From a virus (lineage: Duplodnaviria > Heunggongvirae > Uroviricota > Caudoviricetes), in the IMG/VR virus record IMGVR_UViG_2617271086_000002, positions 1 to 34,445 of that record: 34,445 nt of DNA; one strand, given 5' to 3'. Shown here one piece after another: positions 16,438 through 26,103 of the stretch. The notes below the pieces were generated by a model, which was given only the letters and a program-made list of their open reading frames with translations, ran no database searches and was not told the origin of the DNA. The position numbers were made by a program, and so were the translations under genes. Position 1 is the stretch's first letter. Every line of letters begins with the position of its first letter.

Positions 16438-17211
16438 TCAGGCGAGATAAGAATGAGGGTTGGGAAAAACGATTTCTTTATAACAGCGACAATTCGGGAG
16501 CTCGCCAGCGTGACCGGTCATGCCATCAAGCGTTGGAGGTTTGCCCCATTCGACAAACTTACCTTCCATCTCCCGATGAGAATGCCGGACGTCGCCATCT
16601 TCGGCTGTACGCCAGATATAACCATTCGAGCCGATTGACAGCGCACGCGCCTGATCCAGCGCGCCGGTTGCACGTCCAAGCTCGGTACGGGCGATAAGGT
16701 TCGCTCGTGAGCGTGACACGTCACCGGACGCTGCTATCTCTTTCGCGAATGGTTCAGCGCGGCCACCAGACACAACGGCCTCGATGGCCTTGTTCTGAAT
16801 GTCATACACCCGATCGGCGGCCTCAAGAGGCAGTGACTTGATGTACTTAATTTGCTCGGCGACGATGGATTTCATCACCTGGCCTACCGGGGCGCGGTCG
16901 ACCATGTTGCGCAGCTCTGCGCTGATGTTCCGGCTATGCTGACGCCACTGCTTTTCATTCTGGCGTGCAATGTCGGCGGTAAAGTTCTCAGCAACCTTCG
17001 TCGCCCAGGGGGTGATGATTTCGCTGTAGCGCTCCAGCGCATCCATTATTTCGGTGACACTGTCATTTGAACCATCGTAGCGACCATTTACGATATCCCC
17101 GACCGCCCGCGCTATCTGCCGTAGGCTCGTTCGATATCGGATTTCCGCCTGGCGACTCTGGCGGTTTGTCGCCAAGTTCGCCGATGCCTGGCGGCGCTTC
17201 GTCTTCGGCAT
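16438..17211 (-). CDS. Head morphogenesis protein (Mu gpF / SPP1 gp7 family). The true start may be the ATG near 17046.
   Basis: 257 aa ORF downstream of the portal gene, with a conserved C-terminal region (..HSHREMEGKFVEW..PNCRC). Confidence 0.65.
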   Translation of the reverse strand: MPKTKRRQASANLATNRQSRQAEIRYRTSLRQIARAVGDIVNGRYDGSNDSVTEIMDALERYSEIITPWATKVAENFTADIARQNEKQWRQHSRNISAELRNMVDRAPVGQVMKSIVAEQIKYIKSLPLEAADRVYDIQNKAIEAVVSGGRAEPFAKEIAASGDVSRSRANLIARTELGRATGALDQARALSIGSNGYIWRTAEDGDVRHSHREMEGKFVEWGKPPTLDGMTGHAGELPNCRCYKEIVFPNPHSYLA

Positions 17212-18529
17212 TCTCTATGTCCTCGTCGGTAATGGATGCCCCGATGCCGGTTACGTCAGAATTTTCGCGCAAATCGGTCATAGCGGCTTTCAGTGTCATC
17301 AGACCATCACCCAGCGCCGTACTGATTGCGTTAGTAGTGTTTAACGCCACCGTTGAGCGATCGACATCAGACATTTGCCAGAGCGGGTTAAACTCAAACG
17401 TGAAATCGTCCGGCAGCGGCTTACCGAGTTCCGAGCGGTGCATAATGTCCAGTATCCGGCGCATCGGCATCCGTAAGCGGCGCTCCTGCAATGAACTCAC
17501 CCGGTCATAATAGTTGGCGAGGTCTGCGTCACCAGTTGAGAAGCCTTTCGGGGATTGACCAAACAGGCGTACCAGCGGGATGCCGACGGCACCGCTGATC
17601 TGCTCAGCGAACTGCGAAAGAATGTCATCCAGACCACTGAAGCTGTACTGGTGGGTTTCGAAAGTATCTTCTGAATCCATCAGCGTCATGCCTTCATTGC
17701 TCTGGAACTGGCGGATCAGATCGATGTTCTTCAGCAGCGCTTCGAACGCGGGACCACCCAGCGCAATAAGTTCACGGAGTTTTTTCACTTTGTAGGTACG
17801 CAGATGCGCTTTGTAGACCAGCTGCGCCGCGCCGACAGTGGCGCTGTCGAACGCAGTAAGCCGATCCCAGATTCGCTCTACAACCGACATTCCCCATTCG
17901 TTCTCGGTCATCTTCTGCTGGAATGGCAGCGTGACGCCATCGAAGCGAATCAGGCGGCTGTGATGGATGCGCCAGGCCGGGATGCCCGTTGCAGTGGTCA
18001 CCACGTCGTAAAACTCAGGTTTGCCGAGATCTGGCCCCATCTCTTTAATGCGGCGGGTCAGCACCGGGTTAATCATCCAGCGGTCGAGCGGGAGAATGCC
18101 CTTAAACTTGCCTTCTCCAATGGTTTCGAGCCGCAGCGGGGTCATTGGTGCCTGCCCCTCAATCATGATGAAGCCAACCGCACCGCCATAGAGACGCGAC
18201 CATTTCAGCACGTCATTCAGCGCATCCCAGATTTGCAACTCATCCAGTTGTGATTCGAGAATGCCGCGATCTTTTGCATCAATTTCCGAAGTGATGCGAA
18301 TGCCTTTGCGGGTCATATCATCCGGGATAGCGTCGACCGCTTCGCCGATAATCCAGGACGAACGATAGGACCATTCCACCAGCATGCGGTTACGACTGGT
18401 GAAATTAGCCCGGTAGGTGGATGCTGAGTGCTGGTTAGGTGTCTGCATCCCCACGCGGGCAACAAAGTTCTCATAGCCATCAGCGGTGGCCTGTGCCGTT
18501 CGCCGCGTGGCTTGTTTGTTTCGTGCCAT
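17063..18529 (-). CDS. Portal protein
   Basis: 488 aa ORF immediately downstream of TerL (start/stop abutting at 18529), with an acidic C-terminal tail. Confidence 0.7.
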   Translation of the reverse strand: MARNKQATRRTAQATADGYENFVARVGMQTPNQHSASTYRANFTSRNRMLVEWSYRSSWIIGEAVDAIPDDMTRKGIRITSEIDAKDRGILESQLDELQIWDALNDVLKWSRLYGGAVGFIMIEGQAPMTPLRLETIGEGKFKGILPLDRWMINPVLTRRIKEMGPDLGKPEFYDVVTTATGIPAWRIHHSRLIRFDGVTLPFQQKMTENEWGMSVVERIWDRLTAFDSATVGAAQLVYKAHLRTYKVKKLRELIALGGPAFEALLKNIDLIRQFQSNEGMTLMDSEDTFETHQYSFSGLDDILSQFAEQISGAVGIPLVRLFGQSPKGFSTGDADLANYYDRVSSLQERRLRMPMRRILDIMHRSELGKPLPDDFTFEFNPLWQMSDVDRSTVALNTTNAISTALGDGLMTLKAAMTDLRENSDVTGIGASITDEDIENAEDEAPPGIGELGDKPPESPGGNPISNEPTADSAGGRGYRKWSLRWFK

Positions 18530-20151
18530 CAGGCCTGTCTCCCTAGCAGCTCCCAGATGTTCAGGGCTGAATTCGTTGGCGCGTAGCTGATCATCACCGA
18601 GTCGGCAAGGTTTGGCGACCGGGTTCCATCAGGCTGTTTATCAATAACGATTTTTCCCACACCATTAATGGAATAGGTCGGCTGCGAAAGCTCGATGATG
18701 AGTTTATCTTTGAGTGCCATGCTACTGCTGATTGAGATGATTTCGTCCGGGTTGTAGGCCATGCCCTCAACCACGGCGCGATAGGTGTTCTGGAAAAGCT
18801 TGCGTAGCCACCACCAGCTCTGGGCCTTGGCGTTGGCGAAGAAGTCCTTGTTCAGGCGTGCGGCCTGTCCGTTGTCCCCGCGCACCGCTTCATCGTCCGG
18901 ATCAAATACCGCGCCACTACCTCGAAACGGTGTGGCGAGTATTGACGGTCGGCGCGCAGCGTTACGCAGTTCGTTGATAGCGCGTGCATCGCCGCGAACG
19001 CCAGCGCCCAGCCCGTCCTCGTCAAAGCGAAACTCTTCGAGGTTGTCCTGTTCGCAAAAACCGAAGACCTTCTCGACGGACTGATAAATGTCGCTGCCCA
19101 CACCAGACCATTCCCGCACATTTTCCAGGAGGAAGCCATGACGGGTGGAAAAGGCATTTTTGTCCCTGCCTTCATCAGCGACATCCATCGCGCCAAGTCG
19201 TTTGCCTGTTGGCTGGATACCCAGTTTGATATGCGCATCAACGGCAGCCTGTACCCATTCGGATGGAATCAGGACGCCTTCCGCTGATGCGCTGTAGTTC
19301 AGATCAAGTTCCTGTGCCACCACCACCGGATTATCGATTTTCTCGCATTCCCTGCGATACCACTCTTCATCCTTGCGAGGATCATCCCGCCAGTGGAATG
19401 TGAATACCGGTATCTTCCCGCCGTGACGCTTCTGCGCGAACGGGTTCGCCATGCCGTTAACCGAACTCAGGTCGATACGGCAACGCGTCGTTTGTGACAA
19501 CGCCGCATCAATCAGCAGAGGACGCTGAAGGAATGCAGCCTCATCAACCAGATAAAGCGTGGTACGGTCACCACGACCAATATTATCGCCAGCCTCGCCT
19601 TTGATAACGGCACCAGTTTCAGGAAACTCAACACGCATATATGGCGCGTGCTTCTTCTCGCTCCACGAACCGCGAAACTCTACAGGCAGTGTTTCCACGA
19701 ACTTGCGCGCCTTCCAGAACAATGCTTTCGGGTCACCGGTGCTGTCGACGTATTCCTCTTTACGGGAGCCGAAACCGATAACCATTTCTTTGTTGAAGAG
19801 ACAAAGCGAGCAGGCCAGTCCGATCGCGGTCCAACTGAGCCCCATTTCACGGGATTTTTCGGTAATACCATTCTCCCGATTGCCCCAGCGTTCCATAATC
19901 CAGTGGATCCACTCCTCCTGCTTAGGGAATAGTAAAAACGGAATGGTCACCGGCAGGCCATAATCAATATTACGCGGGTCCGTTGTCATGCCCCAGTCGA
20001 TGATGAACTGAGCCGGATTGGTTCGGTAAAACTGTTTTAGTGCAGGCAATATTTCAGGATTCTGGCGAATGCGCTGTAGGCGTTCCATCCGCCATTCAAA
20101 AACCATCTGGTAATCAGGATGTTTAAAATCGAAGGGGAATGGTAACGGCAT
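18529..20151 (-). CDS. Terminase large subunit (TerL)
   Basis: 540 aa ORF following TerS, with ATPase-like and nuclease-like regions. Confidence 0.85.
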
Positions 20152-20153
20152 AC

Positions 20154-20759
20154 TTAGCCCATCATTTTTCTATACGCCTCTGCAGCCTGCTCCGGCGTTA
20201 AGTTGGTAATTTCTGTTCTGACTGGTCCTCCATCAGCGCCAGTCACTTCATTTTTGACGTTGTCTTTAAACGCCTGAACAGAAACATGACGCCCAAGCAA
20301 CTCAAGGTTTTTAACCTTATCAGGCCATTTGATTTTCTTCAGAAGTGCGGCGCTATCTGCGGATACCATCTCCACGACATCCATTCCTGATAGCGTTGTG
20401 CGCCATACCTTAGGCCAGTCTTTAATCGGCTTCAGTTCGCCATTGGCAAGCAGAATGTCAAGCACGTCCATCTGATCGATTTCAGTCAGCCGTCGCAATA
20501 CATAGGCAGCGTCTATACCTACCTCTTCATTGCGTTCAGCCTTTAGCTCAGCAATGCGATCTGCTATGTCAGGTTTTGACAGGTTCTCGCTACCAGTGGC
20601 GCGAGCAGTTTTCTCGCTGTAACCCGCCCTGATAGCTGCCTGAGTGGCGTTTAAATCTTTTAAATATTCCCTGCAGAACAGTTCCTGCTTAGGTGTGAGC
20701 TGTTTCAAATCACACCTCCGAAACATTGCTCCAATTTCTATGATTAACGATGTCAGCAA
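20154..20759 (-). CDS. Terminase small subunit (TerS). Likely start at an internal ATG near 20726.
   Basis: Roughly 190-201 aa ORF directly upstream of TerL, with an N-terminal HTH-like motif ([25 protein letters not shown]). Confidence 0.7.
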
Positions 20760-21207
20760 TCATGGTAGTGGATACGCCATATCTCTTTGCTAAAGACCTA
20801 AGCCCATTACCTACACTCCCGCGCACATACTCGCGGCGAATGCAGATGACATCGCACTCTTTTAATTTCGCCATTCCGTTCTTTTCACCTGAACGGTCAG
20901 GGTATGAGTTTCTGCCTCGCCTTGACCTGTCACGATTATTGTCAGCGACAGTACCTATAATCAGATGGTCAGGATTCACGCATGATGGATTATCGCATTT
21001 ATGCCTAACAACCAGGTCCTTGATGCTATCTAGCGAAATTCCGTTAGCTTCGCAGTATGCGATTCGATGTGCGTAGTGCGGCTTTCGTGAAATGTGCTTC
21101 TGCCCATACCCTCGCTTATTTATGTAGCCGGTATAAATCACACACTCTCCGACATACACATCATCCGGATGGGAAAACAGCTCTTGTTTGTCTGTGAGCT
21201 TTGCCAT
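20710..21207 (-). CDS. HNH endonuclease (packaging-associated)
   Basis: 165 aa ORF with an H-N-H / Cys-rich motif (HRIAYCEANG...RHKCDNPSCVNPDHLIIGTVADNNRDR), immediately upstream of TerS. Confidence 0.75.
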   Translation of the reverse strand: MAKLTDKQELFSHPDDVYVGECVIYTGYINKRGYGQKHISRKPHYAHRIAYCEANGISLDSIKDLVVRHKCDNPSCVNPDHLIIGTVADNNRDRSRRGRNSYPDRSGEKNGMAKLKECDVICIRREYVRGSVGNGLRSLAKRYGVSTTMIADIVNHRNWSNVSEV

Positions 21208-21228
21208 TGTTGGCTCCGTTTATCCGTT

Positions 21229-21254
21229 AAAAGGGATATCAGTTAAGTTATCCC
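21229..21254 (-). terminator. Terminator-like stem-loop between the Rha-family gene and the HNH gene
   Basis: Minus strand GGGATA-(10 nt loop)-TATCCC followed by TTTT. The stem and U-tract are modest. Confidence 0.35.
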
Positions 21255-21434
21255 GTGTAGGGTATAAGCCATTGTCGAGACCACTCATTGAATGGCCTCT
21301 GCAATAACCGATGTCTTTCCATCAGTCCGCCACCACAAAGAATCTTTTTTGCCATCAGGCAGGAGGTTCATCTTTCAGTGGCTGCCAGTGTTATTTCCCC
21401 ACTTACTGGCTTGGGTTGTTTCGTGGTACTGCTG

Positions 21435-21977
21435 TTAATTAGTGAGTCCGGGGATTACGGTTTGCCCGTGCTGTTCAAGGCGTTCAATTCTCGCCAGTAG
21501 CTGAGGCTTCTTAATTTTTCCCCAGCGATTTAGCAGGCGACCTGACATGCTGGCAACATCCTTCTCTTTCATGTACTCCAGCATTACGGCATTTCGCTCT
21601 TCTTCAAATTGACGATTACCAACCTGAAGCATGGCGTACATCCAGTTGAATGCGTTGATGTAAGCAATTTTGATACGCATTGCTTCTTTTTTGGTGTAGG
21701 ACATAACCAAAAGCATCAACCCATCCTTGCGGAGACGGTAGAATTTTTGCGGCTTACCATTCTGTAACTCATTGTTTTTATAGCAAAGCTCAAAGTTGAG
21801 CTTTGTATCAAACTCAGGAGGGCAAGCTTCTATGGTTCGTTCAATGTCACGAACCACGTTCTTCGGCAGCTTTCCAAATGCTTTTGCCACCATAAAAGAA
21901 TCTGTAACCGGATCGTTGTTTGCTACAAAAATTAGGTCTCTGAAATCTATATCGTTAACAACGGTTGGGTAGTTCAT
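21435..21977 (-). CDS. Rha-family phage regulatory protein. Start at the internal ATG 21975-21977; the longer track ORF is rejected.
   Basis: 180 aa from MNYPTVVNDIDFRDLIFVANNDPVTDSFMVAKAFGKLPKNVVRDIERTIE..., with an AAGG ribosome-binding site upstream of this ATG. Confidence 0.65.
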   Translation of the reverse strand: MNYPTVVNDIDFRDLIFVANNDPVTDSFMVAKAFGKLPKNVVRDIERTIEACPPEFDTKLNFELCYKNNELQNGKPQKFYRLRKDGLMLLVMSYTKKEAMRIKIAYINAFNWMYAMLQVGNRQFEEERNAVMLEYMKEKDVASMSGRLLNRWGKIKKPQLLARIERLEQHGQTVIPGLTN

Positions 21978-22124
21978 TGCGTCTTTACCTTTTAGAAAGA
22001 TGAGCCTGTTCGCACAGAAAAGCCGTCCCCGAGATGGTCGCCACCATATACGGCAATTCTCAGGCTCAGCTTTCTGAAAGACTCGGGGTTTATATGCGCT
22101 GCGATGCGCGTTTACTGAGGACAC

Positions 22125-22148
22125 AAAAAAGCCCCGCAAATGCGAGGC
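22125..22148 (-). terminator. Rho-independent terminator downstream of Rz
   Basis: Minus strand GCCUCGC-AUUU-GCGGGGC (7 bp stem with one G-U pair) followed by a U6-7 run (plus 22125-22130 aaaaaa). Confidence 0.6.
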
Positions 22149-22322
22149 TAAATCCTGGTGTTTGTGATGACTGTCTCTTATCTCAACGCAGCCCCTTACC
22201 GCGCGCCAGATGCTCAATATCAAGCATCAGCAATGAGATGTTTAATCTGGATTCACTCCAGAAGTGATCACCACCCTGTCTACAGAGCCAGATGTGAAGG
22301 ATGATGAGTAAAATTATCGCTA

Positions 22323-22790
22323 TCATCGAAGGCATTGCGTCCTAATGTATTCCTGAAGCGCTCTCAGTGCTGTTTGGTCGCGGATAATTCCGTCCCGGAT
22401 ACCGAGAACGTTTCGTCCAGCAACTGGAGAGAGTTCGACGGTGGCATCATTGCCCATGCCGGAGGCGCCGGAGGTTTCGGCCGAGGATGGCACAGGGGAT
22501 TTTCCTTTGACGAGCACCCTGCCACCATTATCAAGCTTGCGCCGAAGAGCATCATTTTCAGCTTTCGCATCAGCTAACTCCTTCGTGTATTTAGCATCGA
22601 GTGCATCAGCAGTACGCTGACGCTGCTGCATGTCAGTAATGGTGGCAGTCGCCTGCTTCAGCTCACTGACTTTTTTATCGCGCTGCTCTTTGTAGGCGAT
22701 GGCGTTATCACGGTAGTGATTAACAGCCCATGACAGGCAAACGATGATGCAGATAACCAGAGCGGAGATAATCGCGGTTACTCTTCTCAT
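22323..22790 (-). CDS. Rz: Rz i-spanin
   Basis: 155 aa ORF closely similar to lambda Rz ([31 protein letters not shown]...). ATGA overlap with the R stop. Confidence 0.9.
22364..22570 (-). CDS. Rz1: Rz1 o-spanin lipoprotein, embedded in the +1 frame of Rz
   Basis: [21 protein letters not shown]... has a lipobox and a Pro-rich segment, as in lambda Rz1. Confidence 0.8.
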
Positions 22791-23263
22791 ACCTCAATCT
22801 CTCTGACCGTTCCGCCTGCTTCTTTGAATTTTGCAATCAGGCTGTCAACCTTATGCTCGAACTGACCATAACCAGCGCCCGGCAGTGAAGCCCAGATATT
22901 GCTGCAACGGTCGATAGCCTGACGGATATCACCGCGATCAATCATCGACAAAGCGCCACGTTCCTTAATCTGCTGCAATGCCACAGCGTCCTGGCTTTTC
23001 GGAGAGAAATCTTTCAGGCCAAGCTGCTTACGGTAGGCATCCCACCAACGGGAAAGAAGCTGGTAACGTCCGGCTGCTGTTGATTTGAGTTTTGGGTTTA
23101 GCGTGACAAGTTTGCGAGGGTGATCGGAGTAATCAGTGAATAGCTCTCCGCCTACAATGACGTCATAACCATGATTTCTGGTTTTCTGACGTCCGTTATC
23201 TGTTCCCTCTGACCACGCCAGCATATCGAGGAACGCCTTACGTTGATTATTGATTTCCACCAT
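22787..23263 (-). CDS. R: Endolysin (lambda R-type lytic transglycosylase)
   Basis: 158 aa ORF that matches lambda R from memory, apart from a few substitutions ([35 protein letters not shown]...). Confidence 0.95.
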
Positions 23264-23570
23264 CTTCTACTCCGGCTTTTTTAGCAGCGAAGCGTTTGAT
23301 AAGCGAACCAATCGAGTCAGTACCGATGTAGCCGATAAACACGCTCGTTATATAAGCGAGATTGCTACTTAGTCCGGCGAGGTCGAGAAGATCACGAATG
23401 AACCAGGCGATAATGGCGCACATCGTTGCGTCGATTACTGTTTTTGTAAACGCACCGCCATTATATCTGCCGCGAAGGTACGCCATTGCAAACGCAAGGA
23501 TTGCCCCGATGCCTTGTTCCTTTGCCGCGAGAATGGCGGCTAACAGGTCATTTTTTTCTGGCATCTTCAT
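23247..23570 (-). CDS. S: Holin (lambda S-type, dual-start MKM motif)
   Basis: 107 aa ORF that matches lambda S107 from memory, apart from a few substitutions ([43 protein letters not shown]...). Confidence 0.95.
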
Positions 23571-23812: not shown

Positions 23813-23888
23813 TGGTGCTGGTTAACGGACTTGAACCGCTACCCATTCGCTTACAAGGCGACTGCTCTACCATTGGAGCTAAACCAGC
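23813..23888 (-). tRNA. tRNA with anticodon UGU (tRNA-Thr), 76 nt including encoded CCA
   Basis: Minus-strand sense sequence GCTGGTTTAGCTCCAATGGTAGAGCAGTCGCCTTGTAAGCGAATGGGTAGCGGTTCAAGTCCGTTAACCAGCACCA. It has a 7 bp acceptor stem, GG in the D-loop, anticodon loop CTTGTAA, T-loop TTCAAGT and a 3' CCA. Confidence 0.7.
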
Positions 23889-23893
23889 ATATT

Positions 23894-23968
23894 TGGCGGG
23901 ACAGCGTGGACTCGAACCACGATAAGAAGGTTAACAGCCTTCCGTAATGACCTTTATACGACTGACCC
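23894..23968 (-). tRNA. tRNA-like gene with anticodon GUU (tRNA-Asn), 75 nt. It has two U-U mismatches and could be a degenerate copy.
   Basis: Minus-strand sense sequence GGGTCAGTCGTATAAAGGTCATTACGGAAGGCTGTTAACCTTCTTATCGTGGTTCGAGTCCACGCTGTCCCGCCA. It has a perfect anticodon stem (GAAGG/CCTTC), loop CTGTTAA, T-arm CGTGG-TTCGAGT-CCACG and CCA; acceptor pair 4-68 and D-stem pair 13-22 are U-U. Confidence 0.5.
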
Positions 23969-24031: not shown

Positions 24032-24550
24032 CTAAATGGCTAATTGCATGTCAAGGCTTTTAACGGCAACATGCTTAACTTTCTCAACACGTTTACGCAT
24101 TTTGAAAGCATTTTGCATTGGCTGGTATAAAACAAATAATGACGCTTTCAGGATGTCGTCAATTTCGTTTCTACAGGTTGCCAGTGAAGGTTTTCTCCAT
24201 CCCTCGCCACCACGTCCACACATCTTGCGTGGCTTTGCAGTCGCGTGATAGTAGGATGCAATTGCTCGCTTAGATGAACCATGAGCGTAGTAGCTGAGGA
24301 GGATGCCAAAGGCTTTCTTGTCAATGTACATGACGGAATCGACGACCTGAGAAATCAACATTCCATCATCATCATTGCACATTGGCCTTGTCATAACTCT
24401 TCCCGGCTCTACGCTCTCCATGAACTTCGCTATTACGCTGCTCATGCGCTTTTCCAGACGACCTGAATAAACCCATGCGCCCCACAGTTCAAGCCAGCCA
24501 TTCAGCCACTCGTGCTGCTCTTTGGTGAGGTTTAGTTCTCTTATGCCCAT
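24032..24550 (-). CDS. Q: Late-gene antiterminator Q (Phage_antitermQ-type family)
   Basis: 172 aa ORF in the canonical position between the nin region and the lysis cassette. It carries WGAW and C-N-DDDGMLI motifs recalled for this family. Confidence 0.65.
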   Translation of the reverse strand: MGIRELNLTKEQHEWLNGWLELWGAWVYSGRLEKRMSSVIAKFMESVEPGRVMTRPMCNDDDGMLISQVVDSVMYIDKKAFGILLSYYAHGSSKRAIASYYHATAKPRKMCGRGGEGWRKPSLATCRNEIDDILKASLFVLYQPMQNAFKMRKRVEKVKHVAVKSLDMQLAI

Positions 24551-25094: not shown

Positions 25095-25381
25095 GACTTA
25101 ATCTTCCCCTCCTTCAGCAGTATCGCCTGCGTCCTGATCACGCCTTCGAGGTGGTAAAGCCTGGCGTCTTTGTTGTCGAGATTATGGGTGCGTCGGTCGA
25201 TTTCATCGTGACACGCGCTACAAGCCCATGCGCCGATCAGGTCGTCAGGCTTCATTCCCGTTCCGCAAATTCCAGCCATCCGGTAATGTGCCAGAACTGT
25301 AGTTTCAGGGTTGCCATTGCATACGCCGTAAATACGTACCTGGCATTCTCTGCCGCGTGCTTCTTTGCGTAGGTTAGCCAT
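25091..25381 (-). CDS. YbcO-like (DUF1364) Cys-rich putative nuclease
   Basis: 96 aa ORF closely resembling the DLP12 YbcO pattern (MANLRKEARGRECQVRIYGVCNGNPETTVLAH...CSACHDEIDRR). Confidence 0.65.
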   Translation of the reverse strand: MANLRKEARGRECQVRIYGVCNGNPETTVLAHYRMAGICGTGMKPDDLIGAWACSACHDEIDRRTHNLDNKDARLYHLEGVIRTQAILLKEGKIKS

Positions 25382-26103
25382 TAAGCAGCCTCCCCGGTTA
25401 CTTTCAGCATTCCGTTATCGAGAAGCTTTCTGGTCAGCCACTGTTGACCACGCCCGGTGATTTTTGTGGTGAACGATATCTGTATCCCGTGATTTGTGTT
25501 GACCGCTGTTTCTTTCACTGTGAAATAGCCGCGATCCATATATTCCTGCATTGGCACATTGCGCCGGGAACCTGAAGCAATAAGGATTTTGTGATCGCGC
25601 ATCCACGCAAACAGTTTGTTTGGACCAATTCCAACAACCTTTGCAAAGTTTCCAATCAAAATTCCGCTGGCCTCGCCAACGCGATCGGCAAACTCAACTT
25701 TAGGTGCGGCAATTGCGAGCTGGTTTTCCAGTTGCATTTTCTGCTCAGCAAGATCAGCAGCAAGGCGCAACGCTTCCGGTAGCGTTTTGGGGATATTAAC
25801 CGCAGCTTCTTCAAGCTCTCGCCAGCGGTCAACAAGGCGGGCGGTGAACTCTGGCGACAACTGGGCAACAACAACAATACTGTCTCGCTTACCTTGTTCG
25901 CCTTCGAAGACGTAATGCTCGTACTGAACATTGAACCCTAAGTTATTGATTCTTCCGGAAACCTCAATTTGAGGAAGCCGGATAACACCATTTTTAGCCA
26001 GCGTTTCGATGGTACGTTTCACATTGTCATGACGCTTACCCACCAACTCAGCGATTTCAATGCTTGTCATTTTGATGGCATTGCCATTTATTAACTCATT
26101 CAT
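25381..26103 (-). CDS. Antirepressor-like protein (Rha-type N-terminal domain plus KilA-C / Ant C-terminal domain)
   Basis: 240 aa ORF. The N-terminus (MTSIEIAELVGKRHDNVKRTIETL) is Rha-like and the C-terminus (..LFAWMRDHKILIASGSRRNVPMQEYMDRGYFTVKE..) is KilAC-like. Its ATG overlaps the ninF stop. Confidence 0.65.
   Translation of the reverse strand: MNELINGNAIKMTSIEIAELVGKRHDNVKRTIETLAKNGVIRLPQIEVSGRINNLGFNVQYEHYVFEGEQGKRDSIVVVAQLSPEFTARLVDRWRELEEAAVNIPKTLPEALRLAADLAEQKMQLENQLAIAAPKVEFADRVGEASGILIGNFAKVVGIGPNKLFAWMRDHKILIASGSRRNVPMQEYMDRGYFTVKETAVNTNHGIQISFTTKITGRGQQWLTRKLLDNGMLKVTGEAA

Follow-up and report, generated by a model that had tools for sequence, protein, structure and literature searches.

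A conserved leader with a predicted pseudoknot precedes rha and other exchangeable late-operon genes of lambdoid and P22-like phages

Results

A structured leader upstream of rha

The rha region of a virus of the Caudoviricetes (IMG/VR record IMGVR_UViG_2617271086_000002) was analyzed in a window comprising the whole stretch of 34,445 nucleotides (nt); all genes of the region lie on the - strand. Directly upstream of an open reading frame (ORF) encoding a 180-aa protein of the Rha family, positions 21978-22125 are occupied by a conserved leader with a predicted structure that includes a pseudoknot. We lean towards the view that this element of about 150 nt represents an undescribed family of cis-acting leader RNAs, which in lambdoid and P22-like phages of enterobacteria would mark and control exchangeable accessory cassettes of the late operon. 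The leader is found ahead of both rha prototypes, those of P22 and phi80, and many of the genes found behind it (its cargo) share the ORF11CD3 domain. The rha gene and its position are already known, as this is the canonical slot where rha of P22 and phi80 was first mapped; only the leader is of specialist interest.

The structure model consists of a 5' hairpin P0, a basal helix P1a, helices P1b and P1c, the latter enclosing P2a, P2b and P3 (22002-22067), and an H-type pseudoknot (Table 1). RNAalifold applied to a first alignment of 16 sequences returned part of this structure only; the rest was added by eye, and the resulting model was put to the test on larger alignments independent of the first. 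The candidate Shine-Dalgarno sequence of rha, AAGG (21988-21991), is located 10 nt before the ATG and is paired with CUUU (22080-22077) in P1a, both in the minimum-free-energy fold and in the model.

For these tests, 320 related viral loci were fetched with four cargo proteins as queries, and a profile search yielded 362 leader copies, 109 of them distinct; the loci were thus sampled through their cargo proteins. In a MAFFT alignment not fitted to the model (38 sequences with <93% identity), 81.1% of the cells were paired as compared to 74.5% after shuffling (0 of 500 shuffles), both sides of a pair had changed in 113 cells as compared to 38 expected (0/500), and slid controls gave 34-53%. The covariance-model alignment of 104 distinct sequences showed 80.5% pairing as compared to 74.9% after shuffling and both-side changes in 272 cells as compared to 105, with slid controls at 33-53%. 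Helices P0, P2a and P2b were 96-98% paired (P2a 97.6%, P2b 98.1%) and used two or three pair types at single positions; P1c was intermediate. Within the good helices, G-U was found 135 times and A-C 30 times, and this excess indicates that the sense strand folds.

The pseudoknot lies outside the covariance model and therefore provided an independent check. Its 3' strand is off by one or two columns in both alignments; hence alignment-free and anchored tests were used. All 25 distinct combinations of loop and junction contained at least five contiguous Watson-Crick pairs. A dozen or more different cores were found, including UCGCA, UCUCAC, CCGCA, UCACAC, UUCCGC, UUCUCC, UGCCC, CCGAAUG and CCGCAAUG. 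When ten core representatives were re-paired at random, the observed complementarity was reached in none of 20,000 trials. In anchored segments of 7+7 nt, 80.7% of the cells were paired as compared to 63.5% after shuffling (0/500; slid controls 31-50%), with both-side changes at six of six pairs.

Distribution of the leader

The covariance model, R1, detected a single copy in the window (146.9 bits, E 1.7e-33), and it also recognized the leaders of P22 (124.9 bits) and phi80 (151 bits). In the slots of three relatives without such Rha, KilA-N or GIY-YIG cargo (L004, L006 and L012), R1 revealed no leader copy. Cargo behind the leader comprised Rha+ORF11CD3, KilA-N+ORF11CD3, T5orf172/GIY-YIG and, in Stx-type phages, P22_AR_N+ORF11CD3 genes. 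A blastn search with the leader matched at least 146 phage records, 77 of them Stx phages, and the leader is also found in many prophages; phages of Salmonella, Klebsiella, Enterobacter, Hafnia and Citrobacter were among the leader-bearing ones, and the genes behind the matches were labelled Rha, KilA-N, GIY-YIG or DNA-binding.

Some phages carry the leader twice. Phage phi80 has a second copy before an N15 gp59-like ORF (phi80 locus L334, 3993-4133), ahead of cos. In the Stx-type phages L064, L068 (e.g. 992-1156), L072, L073 and L083 the second copy lies between the endolysin gene and Rz, ahead of a 188-aa P22_AR_N+ORF11CD3 gene. A shortened leader without P3 was observed in L118-L124, L161 and L168, about 1-1.4 kb downstream of the KilA-N gene and before small or truncated ORFs.

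A search of the whole window against Rfam 15 brought only two tRNAs to the gathering score; over 21100-22450 nothing scored better than E 0.6, and IsrK was not similar either. A survey of P22 small RNAs from 2026 reported P22F, an RNA of 89 nt ending 6 nt before the rha ATG and seen during infection by small-RNA sequencing and reverse transcription PCR, and P22G, an RNA of 204 nt detected in P22 infection (PMC13397905). Both were reported only as read pile-ups and are uncharacterised; the survey described neither a structure nor conservation, and it drew no connection to cassette exchange (PMC13397905). As a covarying pseudoknotted element tied to exchangeable late-operon cassettes, the leader appears to be undescribed.

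Within the P22 leader, P22F covers the 3' two-thirds. The homologue of P22G in the window (Table 1) takes in the final 19 codons of rha and continues for about 140 nt past the gene. The spacer following rha (21208-21434) folds better than its shuffles (z = -3.84) and is too conserved for a covariation test.

The leader and its ORF form an exchangeable cassette

The borders of the slot were determined by pairwise blastn of the window against its relatives. Over 21199-22358, the window shares 97-98% identity with three P22-like phages (Sf101, CUS-3 and vB_EcoP-720R6) and with numerous E. coli prophages. Phage HK620, with the KilA-N gene hkbK and hkbL as cargo, shares 21973-22500 and 21199-21444 with the window, and epsilon34, with a GIY-YIG/T5orf172 gene, shares 21973-22358 and 21199-21457. 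The E. coli prophage L006 has an unrelated ORF of 95 aa between the shared parts 22126-22358 and 21199-21435. In the lambda-like prophage L004, which has 22126-22500 and 68 bp at 21219-21286 in common with the window, cargo and the whole slot are missing.

The insert in the window amounts to 690 bp (21436-22125), from the base after the T-run of the upstream terminator to the stop codon; recombination has joined the sequences where the T-run ends, at the ATG and at the stop codon. The cassette is thus a predicted structured leader of about 150 nt plus an ORF, situated in a known hypervariable slot. The 227-nt spacer before the HNH gene (21208-21434) is conserved backbone. Its last 68 bp serve as 5' untranslated region (UTR) of the next gene, be it DUF2560, HNH or terS, and homology to the P22-like phages is lost no more than a few bases from the start codon (21207).

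The sequence-only reading of this DNA from which we started had placed a 180-aa Rha-family protein between Rz and the HNH-TerS-TerL block, and both the gene coordinates and the profile matches given below agree. That the gene might be a conserved part of the packaging operon in all relatives, which would have spoken against an insert, was not found. Among relatives with the same HNH/TerS/TerL/portal module, L009 has the same Rha, L010 and L011 another Rha allele of 172 aa, L012 no annotated gene in the slot, and L013 a KilA-N gene and a small ORF, without HNH. Because the slot content differs among these relatives, rha is not a fixed part of the packaging operon. P22-like phages with the same flanks likewise carry Rha, KilA-N, GIY-YIG, Gp49 or nothing in the slot.

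A second, nested insertion point exists at about 21309, where some relatives bear a gene of the Gp49/Sf6 gene 66 family (PF13876) after rha. The window represents the empty form; relative L007 carries both Rha and a Gp49-family gene (L007 1610-1990).

One and the same Rha allele was found behind four leader types, and one leader type before Rha, KilA-N and GIY-YIG genes alike. Apparently, leader types and cargo types reassort freely, and the leader probably also acts as a homology patch for cassette exchange. Could it be a recombination linker at the level of DNA and nothing else, with no function as RNA? The breakpoints, exactly at the leader ends (terminator T-run and ATG), and the free reassortment would both suit such a linker. 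It would need identity, however, not complementarity, and for each of more than ten different loops of 5-8 nt, the reverse complement is present at a distance of about 90 nt. Moreover, several helices stay paired through changes on both sides, and the bias of G-U over A-C is strand-specific. A linker devoid of RNA function is for these reasons highly improbable; the two roles are not mutually exclusive.

Comparison with P22, phi80, HK620 and epsilon34

The slot between lysis and packaging genes is occupied in the order Rz, rha, HNH, terS in the window. Phage P22 carries rha in the slot between Rz/Rz1 and orf80 (DUF2560)/gene 3, in the order Rz, rha, orf25, orf80, gene 3. It shares with the window the two-domain architecture of Rha, a homologous leader, and a 3' flank homologous at 92%. 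In contrast, its N-terminal Rha domain is only about 40% identical, which indicates another allele or specificity, its leader is of a type with loop CCGCA paired to UGCGG, and about 650 bp are additionally present before orf80, whereas HNH-terS follows in the window. In phi80, the order Rz, terminator, leader, rha is the same, and the Rha domain match reaches 107 bits. The phi80 protein differs by being 35% identical and without a match to ORF11CD3, and phi80, a cos phage in which rha lies between Rz and cos, has further genes and the second leader copy before cos. HK620 hkbK and epsilon34 gp68 agree with the window in flanks, terminator and leader up to the ATG, and hkbK also in the ORF11CD3 domain at the end; their N-terminal domains are KilA-N or T5orf172 in place of Rha, and hkbK is followed by the second small gene hkbL.

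The annotated rha starts of P22 (L008 39575-40180) and phi80 (L334 2507-3061) fall inside the conserved leader. They are probably located too far upstream, because the protein alignments start at Met24 in P22 and Met13 in phi80, where the leader ends; these two codons are probably the real starts.

Transcription of the cassette

The terminator after Rz has a stem of 8 bp with six G-C pairs at 22149-22130, followed by TTTTTTGTG. It was called by the terminator scan, folds at -14.1 kcal/mol, and its counterpart is annotated as terminator in epsilon34 and phi80, in keeping with the earlier assignment of an intrinsic terminator at 22125-22148. It is also found in relatives lacking the insert, where homology ends at 22126, and therefore belongs to the backbone and not to the insert.

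The same sequence-only reading had seen a second, terminator-like hairpin at 21229-21254 and concluded that rha is an insulated unit in a moron slot. This hairpin has a stem of 6-7 bp with three G-C pairs, a loop of 10 nt and four U after it, and folds at -8.1 kcal/mol. The terminator scan did not call it, it lies inside the conserved 68-bp 5' UTR of the next gene, and it is missing in some relatives. We have rejected it as a terminator for its weak stem, the negative scan and its position in that UTR. With an upstream terminator belonging to the backbone, no credible downstream one, and no sigma-70 promoter detected by the consensus scan in 21978-22124, insulation could not be upheld.

Classical morons, in the sense used for lambdoid phages and HK97/HK022, have their own promoter and terminator and are expressed from the prophage. 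The rha cassette resembles them as an extra dispensable gene of somewhat different composition between conserved late-operon genes, present or absent in collinear relatives, so that the moron claim stands as far as an optional insert in a variable slot is meant. It differs in that no promoter was found by the consensus scan, no downstream terminator of its own was detected, and the only good terminator is the upstream one of the backbone. As an autonomous moron, the gene would be read from a promoter within 21978-22124 between terminators on both sides, and Rha, made by the repressed prophage, would have the host or incoming phages as its target. The indel relative to close relatives, the position directly after a strong terminator and the low G+C content of the 5' two-thirds of the ORF (0.40-0.43 as compared to 0.47-0.52 in the flanks) fit this picture. 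Against it, the sigma-70 consensus scan of 21978-22124 gave no promoter-like site, and manual inspection of the aligned leaders showed no -10 or -35 element conserved across leader types. P0, at the 5' edge, needs to be transcribed for the pseudoknot, the upstream terminator is not part of the insert, and the downstream hairpin, weak and not present in all relatives, stands in a 5' UTR that belongs to essential packaging genes. An autonomous moron is decidedly improbable, and the cassette is probably none.

P0 must be transcribed because its loop and a segment located about 90 nt further downstream covary; hence the transcript starts upstream of the leader (upstream of 22109). Since P0 has to be transcribed and no promoter was seen, we infer read-through dependent on Q. 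The cassette would have no promoter of its own and would be transcribed only when RNA polymerase modified by Q, coming from pR', passes the terminator at 22122-22149; Rha would then be a late protein. This agrees with P22, where rha (orf201) is a late-operon gene and detrimental to lytic growth without integration host factor (IHF), according to a secondary source (PMC4936722).

Control by the leader

Once transcribed, the leader would fold into its pseudoknotted form with the AAGG Shine-Dalgarno candidate paired in the basal helix. Because of this pairing, the leader probably restricts translation or determines its timing, or else makes a processed mRNA more stable; it would thereby set the output of a potentially harmful protein, or RNA stability.

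The closest functional analogy is IsrK-orf45-anrP of Gifsy-1, where likewise a structured leader or small RNA lies directly upstream of an antirepressor-like phage gene; control of translation is known there and predicted here (PMC4825925). Only after remodelling of the structure does the mRNA become active (PMC4825925). Location, sequence and architecture differ: the IsrK system is found beside a Q-like gene, has its own promoter and its own terminator within the leader, and shows no sequence or model similarity to the element described here.

By this analogy, the leader might instead be the precursor of a small RNA acting in trans, similar to P22F, or a switch sensing a ligand or a protein, with control of rha translation not being its main job. 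Detection of the 89-nt RNA ending just before the P22 rha ATG (PMC13397905), the highly conserved junction nucleotides CUGUG, UGAGRA and GGG across leaders, and IsrK as precedent of a leader small RNA that activates translation of the antirepressor-like gene downstream (PMC4825925) are consistent with this idea. Yet neither target nor ligand is known, and similarity to IsrK or any Rfam family is lacking. P22F does not contain P0 and therefore cannot form the pseudoknot, and the fixed distance between leader and start codon throughout fits a role in cis. We consider a small RNA or a switch quite unlikely to be the main function.

The Rha protein

By its profile matches, the 180-aa protein is a Rha-family member and an allele of the rha gene of P22 and phi80. 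It matched Pfam Phage_pRha (PF09669) over residues 25-113 with 77.1 bits (cut-off 29.9), Pfam ORF11CD3 (PF10549) over residues 125-176 with 91.2 bits (cut-off 25), TIGR02681 with 84.8 bits (cut-off 45.95) and PHROG 518 with 2.6e-81. Nearly all of 294 database relatives are titled 'Rha family transcriptional regulator', and 98-99% identity was found to proteins annotated in this way; identity to the CUS-3 protein is 99.4%. P22 Rha is 56% identical (E 1e-66), with about 95% identity in the last approximately 60 residues (ORF11CD3) as compared to about 40% in the Rha domain; the value for phi80 Rha is 35% (E 2e-25). The G+C content over 21600-21999, the part encoding the N-terminal Rha domain, is 0.40-0.43 as compared to 0.47-0.52 in the C-terminal part and the flanks. 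This fits domain-level mosaicism inside the gene.

The protein is a two-domain member of the 'Bro-network' with an N-terminal Rha domain that is presumed to bind DNA as a winged helix. An AlphaFold2 model (pLDDT, the predicted local distance difference test score, of 76) shows a small domain of the order beta-beta-alpha-alpha-beta-beta-alpha and, after it, a long helical hairpin formed by ORF11CD3; fold searches with this model returned no significant solved relative. DNA binding and oligomerisation may be ascribed to the protein at the level of the family. Across the cargo proteins, the C-terminal module is constant and the N-terminal domain varies between Rha, KilA-N and P22_AR_N. Such a combination suggests a common partner for the ORF11CD3 module and a differing DNA specificity of the N-terminal domains.

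According to secondary citations, inhibition of phage growth in IHF-deficient hosts is the sole tested phenotype of Rha, in P22 and phi80, and the phi80 record annotates rha with 'DNA synthesis inhibition in IHF- hosts'. No site with the IHF consensus WATCAANNNNTTR was found in or near the leader; one site with a single mismatch lies within the ORF, and the total for the window is below chance. Direct control of this locus by IHF thus gets no support from the sequence.

Does Rha act late in the phage's own cycle as an accessory DNA binder, or as an antirepressor or cross-talk regulator of the lysis-lysogeny decision, or in interference or defence against other phages? RefSeq names P22 rha 'anti-repressor' and PHROG relatives are named likewise, a Rha domain occurs together with ANT/KilAC in the nin-region protein of the window, and the block of phage growth without IHF would suit interference. 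The 180-aa protein itself, however, has no match to ANT/KilAC (PF03374), which was found in the window only in the nin-region protein, and it matched no defence model among the PADLOC 2.0 profiles. Furthermore, the position after the lysis genes implies very late synthesis, when the lysis-lysogeny decision has passed. An antirepressor or defence function is unlikely on this evidence.

The nin-region protein (25381-26103) matched Phage_pRha with 35.1 bits. It had been taken as evidence for two Rha paralogues in the prophage. The domain is indeed present; the label of paralogues is generous and was downgraded to a domain shared at profile level, as BLASTP of the two proteins gave an E of 0.26.

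Neighbouring genes

The genes and elements of the region are compiled in Table 1. Between Q and the holin gene lie tRNA-Thr(TGT) and tRNA-Asn(GTT); the same pair is arranged in this way in L011 and L013, and other relatives have tRNA-Thr alone or none. The 50-aa ORF, labelled hypothetical protein in Sf101, epsilon34 and E. coli prophages, is kept in many P22-like and lambdoid prophages. It overlaps the end of Rz by 13 nt, stops before the terminator, and has a hydrophobic N-terminus.

HNH is an optional insert at the 5' end of terS and is missing from L013 and H140-H146. Its first 11 codons, MAKLTDKQELF, are the N-terminus of TerS in the HNH-less relatives L015 and L046, and the TerS of the window bears a diverged repeat of this sequence. 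HNH thus seems to have entered the 5' end of terS by a homing-type insertion, with a short piece duplicated.

Table 1. Positions of genes, elements and predicted leader helices in the window
Feature	Positions	Strand	Evidence or remark
Ant-like nin-region protein, distant Rha domain and ANT/KilAC	25381-26103	-	Pfam
Q	24032-24550	-	
tRNA-Asn and tRNA-Thr	23813-23968	-	
Holin	23247-23570	-	
Endolysin	22787-23263	-	
Rz i-spanin, last gene of the lysis cassette, backbone	22323-22790	-	Pfam Phage_lysis 3.6e-28
Conserved 50-aa ORF, backbone	22183-22335	-	PHROG 11822, 3.9e-38
Intrinsic terminator after the lysis genes, backbone	22122-22149	-	Terminator scan, fold energy, relatives
Structured leader (predicted), 5' part of the cassette	21978-22125	-	Covariance model R1, covariation
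P0 hairpin (GCGC-AUCGCA-GCGC)	22109-22106 with 22099-22096	-	
P1a	22080-22077 with 21992-21989	-	
P1b	22074-22070 with 21999-21995	-	
P1c	22067-22061 with 22008-22002	-	
P2a	22060-22057 with 22019-22016	-	
P2b	22054-22050 with 22026-22022	-	
P3	22045-22041 with 22037-22033	-	
H-type pseudoknot (predicted)	22104-22100 with 22014-22010	-	P0 loop UCGCA with UGCGA in the P2a-P1c junction
rha, 180 aa	21435-21977	-	Pfam, TIGR02681, PHROG 518
P22G homologue	21292-21493	-	94.6% identity over all 204 nt
68-bp 5' UTR of the downstream gene, conserved	21219-21286	-	Shared even with L004
HNH homing-type endonuclease	20710-21207	-	Pfam HNH_3; PADLOC homing endonuclease model
TerS	20154-20759	-	
TerL	18529-20151	-	
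Portal	17063-18529	-	

Discussion

Taken as a whole, the classical rha gene likely is the ORF of a leader+ORF cassette that is expressed by Q read-through and gated by its leader. Several points weigh against this interpretation. Helices P1b and P3 were paired in 59-74% of the cells only. The leaders fall into a handful of lineages, so that the cell counts overstate the number of independent compensatory events, and the shuffle control ignores phylogeny. In leaders of the P22 type the AAGG is located just 3' of the basal helix and not inside it; pairing is thus not uniform, and simple sequestration of AAGG is not universal. The promoter scan, a simple sigma-70 consensus, is blind to weak, activator-dependent or alternative-sigma promoters upstream of P0. 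Read-through dependent on Q derives from the architecture and from P22 literature cited second-hand, and DNA binding by Rha from family annotation, since the fold searches gave no significant structural relative.

The unit is recast here as a leader+ORF cassette behind a backbone terminator, not as a moron with promoter and terminator, and its expression is probably tied to Q antitermination. Its leader, absent from Rfam, stands ahead of unrelated accessory genes, and the predicted pseudoknot has been rewritten more than ten times with full compensation. The joints, located where the T-run ends, at the ATG and at the stop codon, are useful for prophage annotation and engineering. For the control of the poorly understood late genes of the 'Bro-network', the leader offers a concrete target that can be mutated. 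If the reading is true, this family of leader RNAs could double as a homology patch for cassette swapping, and it could supply the regulatory handle that the 40-year-old puzzle of Rha and IHF has lacked.

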